Assembly (NCBI RefSeq): GCF_963676685.1
Contig: NC_092345.1
Coordinates: forward strand, 17,918,001 to 17,982,000
Direction of reading: 5' to 3'
DNA length: 64,000 nucleotides
Origin: Mytilus edulis
Lineage: Eukaryota
In this document: in pieces, positions 169 to 33,666 of the stretch
Numbering within the stretch: the first letter of the stretch is position 1
Layout: each line of letters begins with the position of its first letter
The notes under the pieces: model-generated
Database searches by the model: none
What the model was told of the DNA's origin: nothing
What the model saw: the letters and a program-made list of their open reading frames with translations, nothing else
Position numbers and translations under genes: made by a program

Positions 169-3100
169 TTTACATCCAGGAGATCTATATCCTTACACAA
201 GAAAACCATTATTTTTAATTGTTGATAGTGACAACAGCTCTGCATTCCAGGTATGTGTATTTTTCATTAAGGTCTTTCTATGGTTATGAAAATAAAAAGA
301 CAAGGTATGACTTCCAATGAGACAATTCACCACTAGATATCAAACAACTATAATCCACTGTATTGCCATTAATACTAATAGATTTTGATATATGTATGTC
401 ACCACTTGACATTGTAAAATGGGACAGAATTTTGGATGTTATACAATTATTCAATCCAAACATAATTGTAACCAACTTTTTATACTTAATTTGCCCATAA
501 ATGAAAGAATAGATTTATCTTTATAGTAAAGTCAATTTATTTATTTATTTAAAATACACAATGGATACGTTGCTATCAATTTTTGGGGATTACTTAAAAC
601 TTGCAAATTTATATTTTATATCTATTTCAATGTATTTGATTACATATATATGAACTACTGTTGATCCATTATTATGGGTTTTGTTGGTACAGGTCAACCA
701 CAAAATCAAATGTTAAATGCATAAACTTTTTGCAATAGGCTTGGTATACAGAGATTGGCAAAACCACAAAATCAAATAGGTGTTTTTTTATTATCTTTTG
801 TGGCTTTTTTATTGTGCCAAATTTATGACTGAAAATTGACATGATGATTATAAAAGGATATTATATTTTTTTCTTTTAAGAATTTTCCAAATTTGTTTGG
901 ACAGCCAGTTGTATGCTTTCTATCACCAGAACAGGTCCCTCATGCCATGCAAGGTAACTATCTTAAGGACACAAAAAGACTGCATTCAATTGAAATTTTT
1001 AATATTTCACAGTGATGTCCCTTTGTTATCAAAATGTACTACAATAATAAAAAAAAAATTCAGAATTCTGTAAGTAGAATATAAAAATGCATCAAAGTTC
1101 AATTCTATTTCCCGTCATAATTATTGTGTAGTTTTTGTGATTCCTTTTATAATAAGAAATATACAAATAGACAATTATTTCTCTTAACTAACTGCATGAA
1201 AAAGAACCTCCTAGTAATAGCTTATTATATGTTTCAACTTTTGCTTCAGTATACTCCTTTGTATAAAATTATTTGAAATTATCAAAACTATTAAGAATAT
1301 AACCATGCTTACTTCGTTTGTTAAATGTATAGCCATTTCTTTATAATGCATGTTTTTATTTTTTAGCTGTTAATCAACCTATTATAGGTTTGTTAGTTTG
1401 CTGAAATCCTTTTCTTTTCATGGTTCTTTTGGGGTCTATCAAGTAAAGGGTCAAGAAAGGTGCATTTTATTTTCAAACAAGAAGGAAAATTTGATAGGTT
1501 TTAACCAATAAAAAATTCTTCATTGTTTGAATTTTATTTTTGTAACATGTAGATCCAATTTAAACATTTGCTGTAATCAGGTGTTCAGCATTAAGCAGTT
1601 GGCACATATGTGCAAGTTTAGTTGTGACATTAATCTTTTGTATCCCATGTTCTATTAGAATTACCAAACAATAAGTTGTTACAAGGGAGACAATCTGTGA
1701 TTCCATATGCACCTTTTTTGATCCAGTACATTCTCTTTACCTTCTTTGCTCTTAGTTGGCATACTATGAATTTTATGTAGGCTATTATCTCATGTAGGGT
1801 TAGATTTTTTGTTTATTTCATTTTTTCATTTTTTTATTTTGAATGAATCAAAGACAGTAAGATATACTGTCAACTTGTGGGAAATACCTTCAAATGAGAA
1901 AAGTGTTTGGACAAGCAAATTTAATGTTTCATACAATAATAATAAAACAATATGAATAATTTATCATCACTACGAAAATAATTTTATAAAAAGTGATTAG
2001 AACTATTGAGATATCCAATTTCTAACATATATTCTGCTATTTTTGGTTTTCAGAGAGAAGTATGTACATTATGTGTTGATTTTTATGGATGTTTGATAAC
2101 ACTTGTATATGATTGGCTGATTTTTATGGATGTTTGATAACACTTGTATATGATTGGCTGATTTTTATGGATGTTTGATAACTCTTGTATATGATTGGCT
2201 GATTTAGATTCTCTCAAAAAAATTGGGACATCATGAAAAGAATTTGAATACAATAATTTTCAACAGAAATACCTGTTTTCTATCTAGTCATTGTTTGTGC
2301 CTTAATTGATTCTTAATTCATTCTGATAATGACCAATAGATCCTAATTTAAAATTTAAGCTATAATTGGGGAAATAGAAGCAGAAAGAAGTATTGTTACA
2401 ATGTCTTTTTTTATTTACATTAATAGAGAGAATCTAAATACATATTTTTTGGTATTGGTGTTGTCTTATTGCTGCTATAGACAAGAAATCAATTTGATAG
2501 TTCCACAAAGATTGAGAATGTCACATTGGCTGTTGTGATATTATGTATAGCAAACTAGCACAGTACTATTTTTTTATTTTAGTTTGTTGTAGATAAAATC
2601 AGGGATATGTTAAGAAAATTTTAATTATTTTTTAATTAATCCATTCACTTTAAATCTATATACATTTCAAATATAGTTCTCAATACTTATTGTACGCTTA
2701 ACGAAATTAGATTTAGTGTGAAAAAATTCCTATTTTTTTATTGAAGTACATGTCTTTTCCCGTTTTAATCCACAGTATCTATAAACCCCTCCCCTGTTTA
2801 ACTATAACCATACCAAATACCCTATCATATATGAATAAGTACTGGTAGGTATATATAATGCTGCTATAGCTATGGAAAATTGGTTAAGTGTATGTGTTAA
2901 TACAAGTACAATTTTTAAAAAAATGTGTAGATGTGTTTGCATTGTAAATATTTTTATTGAATGGTAATGGTGCTTGCTTTTACAATGGCTTTATAGATTT
3001 TTGCTTGTATATTTTTTTGCATGTAGATTTTTTTGATGATTTACAAACAAGCTCCTTGGTTTAGGTTTTTTGTGTGTGGTTTGTCTTATTTTCAGACACT

Positions 3101-6100
3101 ATTTGAATGCATAAAATTATATACAAACATAGAAAAGTTAGATTTTCAATTTTAAAGAACTTGTATAGCTGATGGTAACAGCTTGTATGCCAGAGAAAAA
3201 AAGATGTAGTTAGTTCAGTTCAAATTCTTAAGTATTTTAATGCCCCACTTACGATAGTAGAGGGGCATTAAGTTTTCTGGTCGGTGCGTCCGTTCGTCCA
3301 TGCGTCGTTCATCCGTCCGGGCTTCAGGTTAAAGTTTTTGGTCAAAGTAGTTTTTGATGAAGCTGCGGTCCAATCAACTTGAAACTTAGTACACAGTTTT
3401 CTTATGATATGATCTTTCTAATTTTAAAGCCAAAGTAGACTTATGACCCGAATTTCACAGTCCACTGAACATAGAAAATGGAAGTGCCAGGTTCAGGTTT
3501 AAGTTTTTGGTCAAGGTAGTTTTTGATAAAGTTGAAGTCCAATCGACTTGAAACTTAGTACACATGTTCCCAATGGTATGATCTTTCTAATTTTAATGCC
3601 AAATTAGACTTTTTACCCTATTTCACGGTTCATTGAACATGGAAAATGATAGTGCAAGTGGGGCATCTGTGTACTTTGGACACATTCTTGTTTAATCTCT
3701 ACATCAGGACAGTGCACGAAATGAATGCAATTATCTATTAATTAATATCAAACATACAGAAAAAAAAAATTGTTTGTGCCAAATGTAAAAATGTAAACTG
3801 ATTATCATGTTAGAACGATATTACTTTGTAGTAGGATGTTTGTATGACTTTAACTTACAATATTTCACATCCCAAATAATTTCATTTGATATTTTCAAAA
3901 TGATACTTCAAATCAGCATAGTTGGTACAATCTTAGCTCTGAATTATTAAACTTCATATAAATGGAAAAAAGAAGAGAAGTAATTGTAACAAACTAGCCT
4001 AGCAACTCAGTACACATGTTAGTATCTAAGTTGTGAAAATAACAACAATCCTAAGAATAACAAGGTACTGTGGCTTCATGTATTGTCATGGGAACCAATA
4101 TTATCAACTTCAGAAAACTTGCATTTTCATGGATATTTTATTTTTTATTTTCAAAGTCTGCCTGCAAGTATATATTTTTTTCATTTCGTTGATCATTTAA
4201 ATTTATGGTTCATCAGATTCCGTGAAATCCATGAAAATTTGGTCCAACGAATAATAATAAATCCATCGTATATATTCTTAAAATCTTGTTGGTTACGTAC
4301 TTTCAGATCACTGTCTACAACTGAATAAAATTTAAGAATGTTCATTTTCTATTTCAGATCAAAACCAGAAAGGCAAATTGTTTACATTGTTTTTACATTC
4401 CCCATTGATGGCATTCTGTCTAGTATGTAACTACATGTCAATATCCATAGCAACATGGGACAAATGTCAGGCTCAAGTCAACAAGTTTATGGCAGAAGCT
4501 TCAAAACTATTTGTTAAGTCTAGGTCAATAGGTAAGTACCTGGATGAAGTTTACTGATGGAATTAGTTTCTATCTTAGTACTTTATGCTGTTTCATTTGT
4601 AACGTGGGTGAAATAAATTCATTGTATATTCTTTACAAAATTGGGGTTGAAACACCAAATCCAGTATTTTTATTTTATTAGTTGAGTTCTGAGTCTGAGT
4701 AAGATAATTAATAAGTTTGCAAATATTGGTGTGTAAAAAAATAGTTTTCTCATAAAATACCTATGGTATATGAAACCTATCCACTTTTATTATTTTATTT
4801 TGAGGTAACTTTCATTTTATGCTTAAATAAAATATCTGTAATATAATATACTCTTATCTTACCATTTCAGATCATGCCTACATACAGTTTCTTGGAGATG
4901 ACTTTTTACGGCTCATTATGTTGAGATTTCTGTAATATAATATACTCTTATCTTACCATTTCAGATCATGCCTACATACAGTTTCTTGGAGATGACTTTT
5001 TACGGCTCATTATGTTGAGATTTCTGTAATATAATATACTCTTATCTTACCATTTCAGATCATGCCTACATACAGTTTCTTGGAGATGACTTTTTACGGC
5101 TCATTATGTTGAGATTTCTGTAATATAATATACTCTTATCTTACCATTTCAGATCATGCCTACATACAGTTTCTTGGAGATGACTTTTTACGGCTCATTA
5201 TGTTGAGATTTCTGTAATATAATATAGTCTTATCTTACCATTTCAGATCATGCCTACATACAGTTTCTTGGAGATGACTTTTTACGGCTCATTATGTTGA
5301 GATTTCTGTAATATAATATACTCTTATCTTACCATTTCAGATCATGCCTACATACAGTTTCTTGGAGATGACTTTTTACGGCTCATTATGTTGAGATTTC
5401 TGTAATATAATATACTCTTATCTTACCATTTCAGATCATGCCTACATACAGTTTCTTGGAGATGACTTTTTACGGCTCATTATGTTGAGATTTCTGTAAT
5501 ATAATATACTCTTATCTTACCATTTCAGATCATGCCTACATACAGTTTCTTGGAGATGACTTTTTACGGCTCATTATGTTGAGATTTCTGTAATATAATA
5601 TACTCTTATCTTACCATTTCAGATCATGCCTACATACAGTTTCTTGGAGATGACTTTTTACGGCTCATTATGTTGAGATTTCTGTAATATAATATACTCT
5701 TATCTTACCATTTCAGATCATGCCTACATACAGTTTCTTGGAGATGACTTTTTACGGCTCATTATGTTGAGATTTCTGTAATATAATATACTCTTATCTT
5801 ACCATTTCAGATCATGCCTACATACAGTTTCTTGGAGATGACTTTTTACGGCTCATTATGTTGAGATTTCTGTAATATAATATACTCTTATCTTACCATT
5901 TCAGATCATGCCTACATACAGTTTCTTGGAGATGACTTTTTACGGCTCATTATGTTGAGATTTGTCTTTTGTTATATTGTTCTTATCCTACACAGAGGCT
6001 TCAAAGTGAGTAATGATAAATGCATATAGAGTATTGTCTTTTAACTCTTATCTAATAATGTGGCTTTATTTATGATAGATCATTACATAAAGAACAGTTT

Positions 6101-8891
6101 GATTTTTATACGACTGCAAAAATTTTAATTTTTCGTTGTATATTGCTATCACGTTGGCGTCGTCGTCCTGCGTCGTCGTCGTCGTCTGAATACTTTTAGT
6201 TTTCGCACTCTAACTTTAGTAAAAGTGAATAGAAATCTATGAAATTTTAACACAAGGTTTATAACCACAAAAGGAAGGTTGGAATTGATTTTTGGAGTTT
6301 TGGTCCCAAAATTTTAGGAATTAGGGGCCAAAAAGGGCCCAAATAAGCATTTTCTTGGTTTTCGCACTATAACTTTAGTTTAAGTAAATAGAAATCTATG
6401 AAATTTTGACACAAGGTTTATGACCACAAAAGGAAGGTTGGGATTGATTTTGGGAGTTTTAGTTCAAACAGTTTAGGAATTAGGGGCCAAAAAAGGGCCC
6501 AAATAAGCATTATTCTTGGTTTTCGCACAATAACTTTAGTATAAGTAAATAGAAATCAAAGAAATTTAAACACAAGGTTTATGACCACAAAAGGAAGGTT
6601 GGGATTGATTTTGGGAGTTGAGGTCTGAACAGTTTAGGAATTAGGGGCCAAAAAGGGGCCCAAGTAAGCATTATTCTTGGTTTTCGCACCATAACTTTAG
6701 TATGAGTAAATAGAAATCTTTGAAATTTAAACACAAGGTTTATGACCATAAAAGGAAGGTTGGGTTTGATTTTGGGAGTTTTGGTCCCAACAGGTTTTTA
6801 GGAATAAGGGGCCCAAAGGGTCCAAAATTGAACTTAGTTTGATTTCATCAAAAATTGAATAATTGGGGTTCTTTGATATGCCGGATCTAACTGTGTATGT
6901 AGATTCTTAATTTTTAGTCCCGTTTTCAAATTGGTCTACATTAAGGTCCAAAGGGTCCAAAATTAAACTTAGTTTGATTTTAACAAAAATTGAATCCTTG
7001 GGGTTCTTTGATATGCTGAATCTAAAAATGTACTTAGATTTTTGATTATTGGCCCAGTTTTCAAGTTGGTCCAAATCGGGGTCCAAAATTAAACTTTGTT
7101 TGATTTCATCAAAAATTGAACAATTGGGGTTCTTTGATATACCAAATCTAACTGTGTATGTAGATTCTTAATTTTTAGTCCCGTTTTCAAATTGGTCTAC
7201 ATTAAATACCAAAGGGTCCAAAATTAAACTAAGTTTGATTTTAATAAAAATTGAATTCTTTGGCTTTTTTGATATGCTGAATTTAATCATGTACTTAGAT
7301 TTTTGATTATGGGCCCAGTTTTTAAGTTGGTTCAAATCAGGATCCAAAATTATTATATTAAGTATTGTGCAATAGCAAGAAATTTTCAATTGCACAGTAT
7401 TCAGCAATAGCAAGAAATCTTCAATTGCACAGTATTGTGCAATAGCAAAAAATGTTCAATTGCACAGTATTGTGCAATAGCAAGAAATCTTCAATTGCAC
7501 AGTATTGTGCAATAGCAAATATTTTCAATTGCACAGTATTGCACAATAGCAAGAAATATCTAATTGCACAATATTGTGCAATAGCAAGAAATTTTCAATT
7601 GATTGGAGTTATCTTTCTTTGTCCAGAATAGTAGTTGAATCAACTTAATTAATTGTTTTATACAATGCACAATGTATATTCACTTTTACTACCAACTGAT
7701 AAATTAAAACACTCTTTACCATTCAGTGATAACAAGCACTTTTTGGTTACATTTTAATATTTTATGATGTATTTAAATGAGTAGTTATTGTTGCAAACTC
7801 CATTAGAAATTTGAATTGAGATCAGTTTTGAAAAAAGGGAAAGGGGGATGTGAAAAAAAAATGGTGGGGGGGGGGGGGTTAATTTTTCTCATTTCAGATT
7901 TCATAAATAAAAAGAAAATTTCTTCAAACATTTTTTTGAGAGGATTAATATTCAACAGCATAGTGATTGCTCAAAGACAAAAAAAATATTTTAAGTTCAT
8001 TAGACCACATTCATTCTGTGTCCAAAACCTATGCTGTGTCAACTATTTAATCACAATCCAAATTTAGAGCTGTATCAAGCTTGAATGTTGTGTCCATACT
8101 TGCCCCAACTGTTCAGGGTTCAACCTCTGCGGTCGTATAAAGCTGCGCCCTGCGGAGCATCTGGTTTTATTTGTTTTAACTGCACAACACAAAAACTTGG
8201 GAGTTAAATCTTTAAATAACATGTATTGCTTAATCCTTCAGATTCAATCACATTTGAAACAATTGTGCTTACATTTATATTTAAAAAAAATGATTGAATT
8301 GAAAGAATGACTCAATAATGACCTCACTAGAAAGCATTATACAAATGTCTTGCTTGCTCCTGACTTCTATTTGTGTGGTAAACCTTTGCCAATTTGTACT
8401 GTTAGTAAAATAAAATCTAGGAATGGAAACAGGAAAATATGTCAAAGGGCTTCAGCTGGCCTATAATCACAATTTGTACTAGTTCAGCAAAAATGAATGG
8501 CACACTAAACTCCTATACTATAGCCAATATAAAATAAATACACACAGCAATACGCACAGTAAAACTCAGTTTGAAAAAAGTCCTAAGTCCAATAATAGAA
8601 TAGGTAACAGAAGAAACCAAACAAGGTGACTATGACAATAAACTTCTAAATAGCTGAGGAGATATATATATATATATTTTCAATTTAAAATCTAGTTTTA
8701 ACATCAATCTAATAGTTATGAATAATTTTCAGGGGCCTAGCTACTACCCAATGTCTCACCCCCCATTGCCTACAGAAGAGATACTGGAACACCCTGTGCT
8801 ATGTAAGATTGTGCTTGAACTTGCTACGTTATTGGACTGTAGACATGTAATGTCAGAGCCTGGTGAAGTTGACATTCACGCGACAACGTGA
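169..8891 (+). CDS. SCAI: SCAI (suppressor of cancer cell invasion) homolog, last five coding exons; 5' part lies upstream of the window
   Basis: Exons 169-250, 881-953, 4358-4531, 5905-6005 and 8733-8891(TGA) have canonical splice sites and consistent phases. Translation: LHPGDLYPYTRKPLFLIVDSDNSSAFQ/NFPNLFGQPVVCFLSPEQVPHAMQ/DQNQKGKLFTLFLHSPLMAF...KSRSI/DHAYIQFLGDDFLRLIMLRFVFC...HRGFK/GPSYYPMSHPPLP...LELATLLDCRHV...TT*. This matches the SCAI C-terminus as I recall it (LHPGDLYPFTRKPLF, NLFGQPLVCLLSP, LFTLFL, QFFGDEFLRL). Confidence 0.93.
2078..2206. repeat. 41-bp tandem repeat, 3 copies
   Basis: GATTTTTATGGATGTTTGATAACACTTGTATATGATTGGCT at 2078, 2119 and 2160, inside a SCAI intron. Confidence 0.9.
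3235..3633 (+). mobile_element. HINE/DINE-1-like non-autonomous Helentron-type element, family A, with 2 internal core repeats
   Basis: T-run, subterminal IR ATGCCCCAC...GTGGGGCAT, CGTC/CGTT microsatellite, duplicated core of about 169 bp, and 3' imperfect hairpin GTGTACtttgGACAC followed by T-run. A homologous copy lies at 14057-14377. Confidence 0.75.
4066..4270. mobile_element. Degenerate TA-flanked MITE (TACTGTGGATTCA-type termini)
   Basis: Starts TACTGTGGCTTCA and ends AATCCATCGTA. Related sequence at about 656, 16205 and 16527-17041. Confidence 0.45.
4835..5963 (+). repeat. 94-bp tandem array (12 copies) made of the SCAI intron end, acceptor and first ~58 nt of the exon
   Basis: The exon-like segment ATCATGCC starts at 4871, 4965, 5059, 5153, 5247, 5341, 5435, 5529, 5623, 5717, 5811 and 5905. 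Copies look identical apart from a C>G at 5227. Confidence 0.97.
6103..8168 (+). mobile_element. HINE-like element, family B, with three nested internal tandem arrays
   Basis: Subterminal IR TATACGACTGCA ... TGCGGTCGTATA and a CGT microsatellite at 6158-6185. Internal arrays: ~160-bp units x4 (6201, 6360, 6521, 6682), related units at 6820-7350, and ~35-bp units x7 (7362-7600). Ends in a GC-rich hairpin-like segment, then CTGGTTTT. Confidence 0.75.
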
Positions 8892-9334
8892 TCTGATGAT
8901 GTTTTACACAACGTTTTTGTTACATTCCATGTGTTCTTTAAACATTTTGTCTCAAATTATACTGTAAGCTACTTTATTTTTGTAGCCAGAATTATAGAAA
9001 AAGATTTTTTATGTAAATTCATAATATAATTGTCACAGTTAGATTGAAATTAGTTTTGAGTACTTTCAAATTTAGAAAGTTTAAAAAGATTAGTGTAATT
9101 AAAAGTATAATTTTTAAATTTGTTGATGAAGCTTGTTTTGTATGATGGTTAGCATTTTTATAAAAATAAATTAGCTTGCAGTATGTATTATTAAGCTTTC
9201 AAATGAGATTTTTTTAGGATTTAAGCATGAATGTAGATGAGTTGTAAAAGATATTATTTTTGTGCCATTTTTAGATTTTTTTTTATAATTCACAAGCATT
9301 TGATTAATTATTTTGCATTAGAAAGAAGATTGGA

Positions 9335-11927: not shown

Positions 11928-11963
<36 letters not shown>

Positions 11964-13217
11964 CGTCCGTCAGTCCGTCCGTCCGTCAGTCCGTCAGTCC
12001 TGTTTCTTGTCATCGCAACTCCTCTCAAACCACACAACAGAATTTCACGAAACCTTTTCAGATAATAAGGACATACTATGTAGTTGTGCATATCGACGGG
12101 AAATTGCGATTCAATTTTTTTTCTAGGAGTTACGCCCCTTTGAACTTATTTACTTTAATGTACTACTGCAACAGTTTGTCATCGCAACTCCTCTCAAACC
12201 ACACAACAGAATTTCACGAAACCTTTTCAGATAATAAGGACATACTATGTAGTTGTGCATATCGACGGGAAATTGTGATTCAATTTTTTTTCTAAGAGTT
12301 ACGCCCCTTTGAACTTATTTACTTTAATGTACTACTGCAACAGTTTGTCATCGCAACTCCTCTCAAACCACACAACAGAATTTCACGAAACCTTTTCAGA
12401 TAATAAGGACATACTATGTAGTTGTGCATATAGACGGGAAATTGCGATTCAATTTTTTTTCTAGGAGTTACGCCCCTTTGAACTTATTTACTTTAATGTA
12501 CTACTGCAACAGTTTGTCATCGCAACTCCTCTCAAACCACACAACAGAATTTCACGAAACCTTTTCAGATAATAAGGACATACTATGTAGTTGTGCATAT
12601 CGACGGGAAATTGCGATTCAATTTTTTTTCTAGGAGTTACGCCCCTTTGAACTTATTTACTTTAATGTACTACTGCAACAGTTTGTCATCGCAACTCCTC
12701 TCAAACCACACAACAGAATTTCACGAAACCTTTTCAGATAATAAGGACATACTATGTAGTTGTGCATATCGATGGGAAATTGTGATTCAATTTTTTTTCT
12801 AGGAGTTACGCCCCTTTGAACTTATTTACTTTAATGTACTACTGCAACAGTTTGTCATCGCAACTCCTCTCAAACCACAAAACAGAATTTCACGAAACCT
12901 TTTCAGATAATAAGGACATACTATTTAGATGTGCATATCGACAGGAAATTACGGTTCAATTTTTTTTCTAGGAGTTATGCCCCTTTGAACTTATTTGCCT
13001 CAATGTACTTCTGCAACAGTTTGTCATCTCAACTCCTCTGAAAACACACAACAGAATTTCATGAAATTTTGTAGATAATAAGGACATACTATGTATATTG
13101 ACAGGAAATTATTATTCAATATTTTTTCTTATACAATTTTTTTTCTTATACTTATTTAATTTCTCCAATGACAATGTGGGGACATGGGGTATGTGAGCGT
13201 GCTCACTAAGGTTCTTT
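11907..13217 (+). mobile_element. HINE-like element, family D, carrying a 169-bp satellite array (~6.5 copies)
   Basis: Subterminal IR ATACCCCATG ... CATGGGGTAT, 5' hairpin GCAAC-GAA-GTTGC, and GTCC/GTCA microsatellite at 11957-12000. Units start at 12010+169n up to 13024. 3' palindrome GTGAGC-GT-GCTCAC. Confidence 0.85.
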
Positions 13218-17869: not shown

Positions 17870-19720
17870 CATTAACTGTAATGGTGTCCACACAGTTAAA
17901 AGTGTTCATTATAATGTTTTCCACTGTAATGCTGTCCACTGTAATGGTGTCCACACTGTTAAAAGTGTTCATTATAATGTTTTCCACTGTAATGCTGTCC
18001 ACACTGTTAAAAGTGTTCATTATAATGTTTTCCACTGTAATGGTGTTTTCTGTAAAAGTGTTCGTTATAATAGTTTCTACTGTAGTACTGTCCACTGTCA
18101 TAGTGTCTGCTGTAATTGATTTCATTGTCATAGTGGCCACAGTAGTTCTGCCCACTGTAATTGTGTCCACTGTCATATTGTCTATTGTAATGGTTTCCAC
18201 TGCAATAGTGTCCACTGTCATAATTTCTGTTGTAAAAGTGTTCACTAATGGTGTCCAATGAAATGGTTTCTACTGTCATAGTGTCTACTGTAATGGTCTT
18301 CACTGTTATAATGCCCATTGTTATAGTGTCTACTGTTATGATGTTTGTTAAAAAAGTGTTCTTAAGGTTTTATCCACTGTAATATTGTTTACTGTTATGG
18401 TTTCCACTGTTATACTGTCCATTTTAATAGTGTCTACTATAACACTGTCCACTGTGTCTTGTAATGCTGTCCACTGAAATAGTATTTGCTAAAAAAGTTT
18501 TGTCCACTGTTATATTGTTAACTGTCTCTACTGTAATACTGTCTGCGGTGTCTTTTGTTATACTGTCCAATGTGTCTATTGTAATGATGTCTACTGTAAT
18601 ACTGTCCACTGTGTCTATTATAATGCTGTCCACTGTATTAGTGTTTGCTTAAAAAGTGTTAGCCTAAGGTTGTGTCCACTGAAATAGTGTCTTCTGTTAT
18701 GGTTTCCACTGTCATACTGTTTAATGTGTCTTTTTCAATGCCTCTACTGACTGTAATACTGTCCACTATGTCTATTTTTTTGCTGTCCACTGTTATGGTT
18801 TTTGTTAAAAAAAATGTTCTCTTAAGGTTTTGTCCACTGTAATAGTGTCTACTATAATAGTGTCCACTGTAATGGTGTCTACTGTAATACTGTCCACTGT
18901 GTCTACTGTAATGCTGTCCACTGTGTCTACTGTAATGCTGTCCACTGTGTCTATTGTAATGCTGTCCACTGTGTCTATTGTAATGCTGTCCACTGCCATG
19001 GTGTCCACTGTAATGCTGTCCACTGTCATGGTGTCCACTGTAATGCTGTCCACTGTCACTGTGTCTATTGTAAGGCTGTCCACTGTCATGGTGTTTATTA
19101 AAATAGTGTTCTCCAAAGGAATGTTCACTGTCAAAGTGTCTACTGTACTGGTTTCCACTATTATACAGTCCATTATTATAGTGTCTACCGTTATGATGTT
19201 TATACTGTTCACTGTGTCTAATGTAATGCTGTCCACTGAAATGGTGTTGGTTAAAAAAATGCTATCTAAAGGTTTGTCCACTGTCCATTGTAATAGTGTC
19301 CACTGTAATATTGTTTACTATAATAATTTCCACTGTTATACTGTCCATCCTAATAGTGTCTACTATAACACTGTCCACTGTGTTTATATATAGTAATGGT
19401 GTTGGCTTAAAATGTGTTCTCTAAATGTTTTGTCCACTGTAATATTGTTTATTATAATGGTTTCCACGGTTATACTGTCCATTGTATTTGTATACTCTGT
19501 AATGATCTCTACTGTAATACTGTCCACTGTGACTATTGTAAAAATGCTGTCCACTGTTATGGTGTTTGCTAAAAAAGTGTTCACTAAAGGTTTTGTCTAC
19601 TGTAATATTGTCCACTGTAATACTGTCCCTATGTCTATTTTAATGCTGTCCACTGTTAAGGTGTTTGCTAAAAAAGTGTTCTCTTAAGGTTTTGTCCACT
19701 GTAATATTGTCCACTGTAAT
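17870..19720. repeat. Degenerate low-complexity satellite built from TGTCCACTGTAAT-like 9/15-bp units
   Basis: Dense recurrences of (TG)TCCACTGT/TCTACTGT, punctuated by TTTGCTAAAAAAGTGTTC-like motifs. ORFs in several frames are broken by stops. Confidence 0.85.
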
Positions 19721-28959: not shown

Positions 28960-30457
28960 TTATGCTTCTGAGACACTTCCGTTTGTATGATGTAACATAT
29001 GACTAGACTCGTTTTGATTTAATAATATATCCTCCGTGGTATGTTCTTCCATTACGTTTGGTAAACTACTTTGATTGAAAACAGGTGCAAATGTTGTAGT
29101 TCCAGCTTTCCGAGTAGTTCTCCGATCTATCGATGAATCTTCCGGACTCGGATAACTGTCCGTCAGAAGATCGTCCAACGACGATACTTTTACTAGATTT
29201 ACTTCTTTTGATTGTTCGCGCTGTTTTTCTCTCCGTCTTTTCTTTGCCCAGTCCGTTTGCGATTGTCTTGATTTTTGATGATTGTCTGATGGCATGAAAA
29301 TTCTTTTTATCATACAAAGTATAACAAGAATAGATAAACATAAAACAACAATCACAGATATAGCAACCGGAAGTATAAATGATTGTGACCAAAAGGAATA
29401 CTCAGTGTTCAAAGTTTTTATAACTAAACAGTTTTTATCGTATGTTAAATTCACTTCTCGTGGCACGCACCAACCAGCGGGATCAGTAACGGCACACAAG
29501 GTGAAAGATGTGTCCATTTGTAAACCATCTAATCCGTCGATAGGGGAGTAAATATTTGTAGCAATCGAGCATGACCGCTCAGATGAGTTTTTCCAATACT
29601 GAATAGAATATGATAAACTGTCTTGAAAAGAATCACTTGATATAACTTCTCCACTAGAAACGTTATGAAATGAAACTTTAAAGCCTATATAATGCGCTTT
29701 TATCACATCTGGAGTAAGAATGAGCTTTGCCTCACATCGAGGCCCAGTAAAATGACCATGACATATACATCTTGCCTCCGTTTCCAGTAAGTTCATACCA
29801 TTTAACACAAAGGTTTCTTCCATGCAATGACTGTCGTTTTCACATTGTATATTGCTACATCGCTTTGTTACATCGTCTGAAATACATGTAATGAAGACTT
29901 TATAATCAAAGAATATTATATGGACATGCGTAAGCTATTGGCTCTTTTAATTTTCAACAATGCAATACAAATAAAACCACAAGGCCTTTCAAAGCATTGT
30001 TTGTCTGTTTATTTGTTTATTTTTGCTGTTGTTTTTGTTGTTGATTGGTGTGAACAAGTTAACAGCAGCATTTCATCTTAATCTAACTATAATTTTAAGT
30101 CACCATCAATTTTTTCTACTTTCTCAAAACCTCTCAACCAACAAATCACACTTTTTGTATACAAATCAGTAGTGTGCTTATCTATGAAATCATGTGATTT
30201 TAAACTATCATGATAATTTTTTGTATGTTAAATGTAATTGTAATATGCGCCAATAAACGGTAAACATTCATCTAAGCCTCTTCAAAATTTTCAGTGACAT
30301 AATCGACCAAATACACAAAGGATAAGTATTCAACACAGATTTAAGAATTAAATTAAAAATCTAAAGTGTATTAATTTGTTTATAACAACTTACATTTTAA
30401 AACAGGAGCCGTTAATACCATTGTAATACAGGATAGAATTCTCACCAATAGATTCAT
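28960..30457 (-). CDS. Single-pass type I membrane protein: signal peptide, EGF-like domain, FN3-like domain, TM and Ser/Thr-rich cytoplasmic tail; 326 aa
   Basis: Coding exons 30457-30394 (MNLLVRILSCITMVLTAPVLK, GTAAGT donor) and 29876-28960 join in phase. EGF cysteines: CSNIQCENDSHC...CICHGHFTGPRC. FN3-like motifs FKVSF, YSIQYW and LDGLQMDTSFTLC. TM FILPVAISVIVVLCLSILVILCMI is followed by KR. Further upstream exons cannot be excluded. Confidence 0.82.
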
Positions 30458-32760: not shown

Positions 32761-33666
32761 AAAACAACTGATTAGTAAACTCTTGTCTATTAAGGCACAA
32801 CAACTGAATAGTAAACTCTTGTCTATTAAGGCAAAACAACTAAATAGTAAACTCTTGTCTATTGAGGCAAAACAACTGAATAGTAAACTCTTGTCTATTA
32901 TGGCAAAACAACTAAATAGTAAACTCTTGTCTATTAAGGCAAAACAACTGAATAGTAAACTCTTGTCTATTAAGGCAAAACAACTGAATAGCAAACTCTT
33001 GTCTATTAAGGCACAACAACTGAATAGTAAACTCTTGTCTTTTAAGGCAAAACAACTGAATAGTAAACTCTTGTCTATTAAGGCAAAACAACTGACTAGT
33101 AAACTCTTGTCTATTAAGTCAAAACAATTGAATAGTAAACTCTTGTCTATTAAGGCAAAACAATTGAATAGTAAACTCTTGTCTATTAAGGCAAAACAAT
33201 TGAATAGTAAAATCTTGTCTATTAAGGCAAAACAACTAAATAGTAAACTTTTGTCTATTAAGGCAAAACAACTGAATAGTAAACTTTTGTCTATTAAGGC
33301 AAAACAACTGAATAGTAAACTCTTGTCTATTAAGGCAAAACAACTGAATAGTAAACTCTTGTCTATTAAGGCAAAACAATTGAATAGTAAACTCTTGTCT
33401 TTTAAGGCAAAACAACTAAATAGTAAACTTTTGTCTATTAAGGCAAAACAACTGAATAGTAAACTCTTGTCTATTAAGGCAAAACAACTGAATAGTAAAC
33501 TCTTGTCTATTAAAGCAAAACAACTGAATAGTAAACTCTTGTCTATTAAAGCAAAACAACTGAATAGTAAACTCTTGTCTATTAAGGCAAAACAACTGAA
33601 TAGTAAACTCTTGTCTATTAAGGCAAAACAATTGAATAGTAAACCCTTGTCTATTAAGGCAAAACA
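32761..33666. repeat. 36-bp minisatellite, ~25 copies
   Basis: AAAACAACTGAATAGTAAACTCTTGTCTATTAAGGC units with point variants and no visible indels. Confidence 0.97.

Follow-up and report, generated by a model that had tools for sequence, protein, structure and literature searches.

The SCAI gene of the mussel Mytilus edulis carries one splice acceptor twelve times in tandem, which raises the question of whether such an array exists in living animals and, if so, how the correct acceptor is chosen. We analyzed a window of 64,000 nucleotides (NC_092345.1, positions 17,918,001 to 17,982,000); all coordinates below refer to this stretch. We favor the view, with a probability of about 0.7, that the array is a copy-variable tandem duplication of the SCAI acceptor, a "mirage" minisatellite that is likely a near-neutral passenger, and that the spliceosome likely picks the last acceptor.

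Structure and coding outcome of the array

Tandem Repeats Finder reports a period of 94, 12.0 copies, 99% matches and a score of 2251 between positions 4835 and 5963. The initial annotation had described twelve tandem 94-bp copies, each made of about 36 nt of intron and 58 nt of exon. Both points are borne out: 11 of the 12 units are identical when compared singly, and each consists of 36 intronic and 58 exonic bases spanning the intron-exon boundary. The array stops at 5963, however, and not at 6005 as had been annotated. Its sole variant base, a C to G change at 5227, lies in the intronic part of unit 5 and creates an extra AG at -21. The breakpoints of the 94-bp duplication share 1 base of microhomology, which together with the 58 exonic bases gives each decoy 59 post-AG bases in common with the last copy. 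The same acceptor 12-mer closes the intronic part in all twelve units. The claim that the acceptors are locally identical holds from -36 to +59 and fails for the first acceptor beyond -36, where its context is unlike that of the other eleven (nearest upstream AG at -68 versus -41). The authentic exon lies at the edge of the array, and unit 12 alone continues to a donor. The features of the locus are listed in Table 1.

Table 1. Features at the SCAI acceptor array (window coordinates)
Feature	Coordinates	Strand	Basis
Coding exon of SCAI upstream of the array, with donor GT at 4532	4358..4531	+	Pfam PF12070, positions 441-496
Unique intron part before the array	4532..4834	+	
Array of 12 x 94-bp units, each with 36 nt of intron end including the CAG acceptor and 58 nt of exon start	4835..5963	+	
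Decoy acceptors 1-11, with exons starting at 4871+94k (k=0..10), all leading to RFL-stop	4871..5868	+	
Unit junction region, recurring each 94 nt: in-frame TAA at 4933-4935, weak GT at 4932	4931..4944	+	
Same junction region: TGTA at 4931, AATATA hexamers at 4934 and 4939	4931..4944	+	
Variant base of unit 5, C>G	5227..5227	+	Unit-by-unit comparison
Authentic 101-nt exon from the 12th acceptor, with unique 42-nt tail and donor GT at 6006	5905..6005	+	Pfam PF12070, positions 497-528
Last coding exon with stop codon; AATAAA at 9165	8733..8891	+	

Translation of all twelve possible exons agrees with the earlier statement that eleven acceptors meet a TAA and only the twelfth yields a full-length protein. 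Acceptors 1-11 translate to DHAYIQFLGDDFLRLIMLRFL followed by TAA, so that the decoy reading ends in ...SIDHAYIQFLGDDFLRLIMLRFL, with the stop 130-1070 nt upstream of the last exon junction. From acceptor 12, the frame remains open through the 101-nt exon and its donor until the stop at 8889-8891. The decoy stop needs no special cause, because 44% of shuffles place an in-frame stop within the 36 intronic bases and the unit length of 94 is not divisible by 3. In none of its three frames does the array stay open beyond 34 codons. Two other routes through the locus were rejected: skipping from 4531 to 8733 leads to an early stop, and cassette mini-exons using the in-unit GT at 4932 give early stops and an intron of just 33 nt.

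The gene is SCAI. The exons on either side of the array match the Pfam SCAI family (PF12070) in order, at the profile positions given in Table 1, and join into a full-length protein, which places them in the SCAI family. In the source genome, all 10 of the PF12070 matches listed (of at least 10) fall at one locus, that of the array. The exon at 5905-6005 is identical at 34 of 34 residues to Mytilus SCAI 491-524, and SCAI entries from Mytilus galloprovincialis, M. edulis and M. coruscus match the query exon with 100% identity. Decoy splicing loses 66 residues, which are 54-82% identical in 11 relatives that are non-Mytilus or unnamed. A search for a solved structure of SCAI found none at an E value of 0.01, and none of the titles among the literature matches listed concerns the SCAI gene in Mytilus.

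Further upstream in the same gene, a 21-nt microexon (1367-1387, plus strand) bounded by AG and GT encodes the 7 residues that isoform X1 of Mytilus SCAI has in addition; this isoform is 583 residues long as opposed to 576 without them. It was located as a single exact match, with 0 expected by chance. SCAI entries with and without the 7 residues occur in three Mytilus species. One RNA contig (X19) seemingly skips the microexon, as its loose end matches an exon near 940-953.

Several other repeats and open frames lie in the window. Inside and after SCAI lie three elements (6140-8170, 11955-13095 and 3323-3655) in which a short microsatellite precedes tandem units of 161 or 169 bp and additional repeats; they may resemble the non-autonomous bivalve pearl/DTC84 kind. 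A 36-bp minisatellite of 25.2 copies at 32761-33666 carries an open frame on each strand (339 and 318 residues), and its plus-strand frame matches Pfam DUF7486 with an E value of 3e-13, probably via the repeat. On the minus strand, a 324-residue open frame at 28963-29934 has a weak, sub-cut-off match to Pfam Myc_target_1 (E 0.0014) and is probably an exon of a membrane-protein gene. The region 17875-19720 is occupied by a long, degenerate satellite of 15 bp that contains several long open frames of low complexity.

Presence and length of the array in sequencing runs

Contigs from 8 of 24 sequencing runs, five DNA and three RNA, were placed on the locus; none of the 24 pairs DNA with RNA from the same animal. 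The DNA contigs, from five studies under four coded organism labels that do not necessarily stand for four mussel species, were compared with the left flank plus 1.4 units. One run, X1, is possibly the source of the window itself and is not counted as independent. The unit junction is crossed by contigs in four of the five DNA runs (X1, X3, X4 and X12), and X2 is compatible with it. In X12, a contig over 4845-4965 bridges the junction under a strict 31-letter rule. The contigs of X1 and X3 (124 nt, over 4835-4958) and of X4 (59 nt, over 4900-4958) extend 30 letters beyond the junction, one under this rule; they nevertheless support it, because their 31-letter words require two joined units. 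The X2 contig, also 124 nt, has the length of a cycle and is placed over 4835-4929. It would contain the junction within its first 29 letters, outside the placed part. A scan of metagenome contigs gave 0 matches to the exact junction sequence and is uninformative.

The number of units was estimated from within-run depth ratios, which are rough, averaged over haplotypes and no true copy numbers. In X1, a depth of 61.6 over 5.9-7.3 corresponds to about 9-11 copies (8.7-10.7). Ratios from single contigs give 1.7-2.0 for X2 and about 1.3 for X3. For X4, depths of 32.4 in the flank, 64.1 in the core and 30.2 at the junction suggest about 2 copies, and for X12 a depth of 148 over 41.1 suggests about 4. 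Against 12 copies in the assembly, the five runs thus span a rough 1.3-11, a spread of approximately tenfold. Since the ratios differ among runs, the array is a VNTR, present under four organism labels, as the initial annotation had guessed. In X12, the first unit is unlike the others at 4844. In every DNA run, the intron stretches 4100-4290 and 4630-4710 attract many contigs from elsewhere, indicating that they are short dispersed repeats.

These data bear on the possibility, raised in the initial annotation, that the array is an assembly artefact, either because the genome holds one copy or because a collapsed repeat was expanded to 12 from a number far below that. The near-perfect identity of the units speaks for such an error, the best-matching run gives 8.7-10.7 copies and not 12, and the array is spanned by none of the placed contigs. 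However, junction contigs were obtained from independent studies (X3, X4 and X12), the unit depth in X1 is raised about tenfold, and unit 5 has its own variant. The single-copy version is refuted by the junction contigs and the unit depth, and an artefact of any kind is extremely unlikely. The duplication is real, widespread and variable in length. The proposal of a very recent expansion fits the homogeneity of the array; it does not extend to the duplication itself, which five studies under four labels either show or imply.

Choice among the twelve acceptors

To learn which acceptor is used, we examined the RNA contigs. All three join the exon ending at 4531 to an acceptor across a 339-nt GT..AG gap. 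Two of them, X17 and X19 (the latter from a PacBio library), pass at 4929 into the unique exon tail and therefore represent the full-length form from the last acceptor, while X15 stops at 4915, short of the deciding base. No contig in the three RNA runs covers the unit junction or the unit's intronic part, which is weak evidence only. Both informative contigs are thus of the last-acceptor form, at a depth of about 3 and from ungenotyped animals, and assembled RNA contigs lose rare forms. If counts follow a Poisson distribution with a floor of two, a decoy share of 20% would be missed in both informative runs with a probability of 0.68 and a share of 50% with a probability of 0.04. The RNA contigs therefore rule out only very heavy decoy use. 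In addition, X15 extends from 4358 back into the preceding intron by at least 18 bases (4340-4357) and 36 further letters, so it may reflect partial intron retention, pre-mRNA or an upstream acceptor.

Protein entries present a different picture in one case. Among ten named Mytilus SCAI entries, eight have the full-length end, one is an unrelated 356-residue fragment and one has the decoy end. The last, an automated RefSeq model of M. edulis (isoform X3, XP_071154617.1, 518 residues), equals isoform X1 to residue 517 and then has L, terminating in ...MLRFL exactly as the decoy product does. This entry shows that the annotated M. edulis assembly, which is not necessarily independent of the window, also has the unit junction. 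For 100-nt junction reads with 8-nt anchors, 52 of the 85 possible placements are equally compatible with every acceptor, and isoform X3 may for this reason be a mapping artefact: an aligner that favors short introns would call acceptor 1 even at zero true use. The texts found on Gnomon and NMD give no NCBI rule for models of this kind. Isoform X3 does not prove real decoy use.

In a rival reading, a measurable part of splicing would go to the decoys, most likely 11, 10 or 1, and this part would grow with copy number, lowering full-length SCAI as an unselected side effect. This is the splicing rheostat of the initial annotation without its adaptive claim, and we consider it possible but unlikely. 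Besides the RefSeq model that ends at the decoy stop, it draws on the identity of the acceptors over the whole -36 to +59 interval, on the normal size of the exons from acceptors 10 and 11, and on the approximately tenfold variation in copy number. A precedent exists on the donor side, where the available part of one report describes use of the two nearest pseudo-sites besides the authentic site in 6-16 and CBS IVS13 (PMC1557585). Set against these points are the absence of a junction contig in all three RNA runs, the ambiguous reads that make an "acceptor 1" intron possible without real use, and lancelet mirages that are reported as silent in the accessible portions of two papers (PMC3087553, PMC3902484).

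The decoys could also serve as a selected switch, that is, an alternative last exon whose RNA is polyadenylated inside the array and escapes decay, producing a 511- or 518-residue SCAI that lacks the conserved 66-residue tail. In each unit, a TGTA and two AATATA hexamers, which we take to be weak poly(A)-signal variants, sit right at the decoy stop. AATATA occurs only 4 times in the 3707 nt of the gene's other intron sequence, and the RefSeq model with this end, XP_071154617.1, is annotated as protein-coding. Nevertheless, the motif bases are merely the original end of the intron, the expectation for the gene's introns is 0.34 occurrences of some variant hexamer per 36 nt, and the stop is of a kind that nearly half of the shuffles produce. 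No RNA contig in the three RNA runs supports this product, and we regard a selected switch as very improbable. A related proposal, also improbable, treats arrays of about 2-12 identical acceptors as a natural allelic series, in which the length would determine the amount of SCAI pre-mRNA diverted to the decoy alternative last exon via the weak in-unit poly(A) signal.

The reading that we favor is a tolerated passenger array. A piece of 94 bp across the intron-exon boundary underwent head-to-tail duplication, its breakpoints sharing 1 bp of microhomology, and the number of copies varies between animals, as the rough depth ratios indicate. Unequal crossing-over or slippage would account for the variation and would also keep the units alike. 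At the level of splicing, the in-unit GT sites match 3-4 of 9 positions of the donor consensus, compared with 6-8 of 9 for the four real donors. Decoys without a usable donor nearby suggest that cross-exon pairing would favor the acceptor adjoining the donor at 6006. The 101-nt exon would then win, and the 11 decoys would be removed inside a 1373-nt intron. This resembles the explanation in the initial annotation, that correct splicing must rely on exon definition from the downstream donor. Exon definition is plausible given the weak GT sites of the decoys. It is not sufficient, because acceptors 10 and 11 would give exons of 289 and 195 nt, which are of ordinary size. Exon size alone therefore does not select the last acceptor, and something else must play a part, be it closeness to the donor, an enhancer within the unique 42-nt tail, or decay. 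A literature search found no paper joining Mytilus, nonsense-mediated decay and premature termination, so decay of decoy transcripts in mussels is an assumption here. Any leak to a decoy would meet the premature stop, and the transcripts would be degraded or give a minor truncated form. Arrays that disturb splicing in this single-copy gene would presumably be purged, and the tolerated arrays would be those that we observe.

Comparison with known boundary repeats and significance

The closest known counterparts are the mirages of amphioxus. In the available parts of the two reports, these include the acceptor-type BflGb6 (6 versus 3 units) and are said not to interfere with splicing; mirages in Adh3 and troponin C, and somatic length instability of the Adh3 mirage, are cited there as well (PMC3087553; PMC3902484). 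BflGb6 and the mussel array both repeat, head to tail, an intron's 3' end together with the 5' portion of the following exon, with splice signals kept. Both differ in length between haplotypes or individuals (6 versus 3 units in BflGb6), and both have homogenized units with the boundary unit set apart, represented in the mussel by the first unit of X12 with its difference at 4844. The transcripts reported for BflGb6 are normal; for the mussel, two of two informative RNA contigs at a depth of about 3 are normal, and RefSeq isoform X3 points the other way. The lancelet repeat has units of 150-160 bp with 81-100% identity, whereas the mussel unit is 94 bp and almost perfectly identical, and a RefSeq model with a decoy product exists for the mussel locus. 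The mussel array has the structural and length-variation features of a mirage. It is an acceptor-type mirage in mussel SCAI, real and polymorphic, and belongs to a class already described.

Two human systems are instructive. The CBS 844ins68 insertion is described in the accessible text of two reports as a duplication (PMC2630376) of 52 intronic and 16 exonic bases (PMC7490669), and the available part of a third states that the distal of its two identical acceptors is chosen, promoted by G runs (PMC1802585). Like the mussel array, it duplicates an intron end and an exon start with identical 3' splice sites. Unlike the mussel array, it has two sites only and is no VNTR. A G-run silencer of the CBS type is absent from the mussel unit and junction, where there is no GGG and the longest G run is 2. 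The second system consists of minisatellites at donor boundaries, for which the available portion of one report names the 37-bp VNTR of F7 IVS7, the interferon-inducible gene 6-16, CBS IVS13, lamin B2 and PDGF (PMC1557585). These are polymorphic repeats that reiterate an exact splice site, as in the mussel, and form its mirror image because they multiply 5' sites. According to the same text, the site on the intact exon dominates, with some leak in 6-16 and CBS (PMC1557585). A scanning model running 5'-to-3', as proposed for F7, would leave use of the last acceptor unexplained.

The locus carries a warning for annotation, as arrays of this type can put truncated isoforms into RefSeq through ambiguous mapping of junction reads. 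It also provides a natural test system, in which identical acceptors are arranged in arrays of differing length in living animals, in a conserved single-copy gene, and the outcome can be read clearly from a 94-nt ladder and a fixed stop. With it, one could test directly whether splicing always goes to the acceptor closest to the donor; in the literature found, this question has been studied more for donors (F7) than for acceptors. If the allelic-series proposal were true, mussels would make a stable SCAI without the 66-residue C-terminus, in the form of RefSeq isoform X3, and copy number would dial the dose of SCAI. Were decoy use to track copy number, the mussel array would be a VNTR on the acceptor side through which the dose of SCAI, a conserved nuclear protein, is adjusted. 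Among the titles listed in a literature search, none described a case of this kind.
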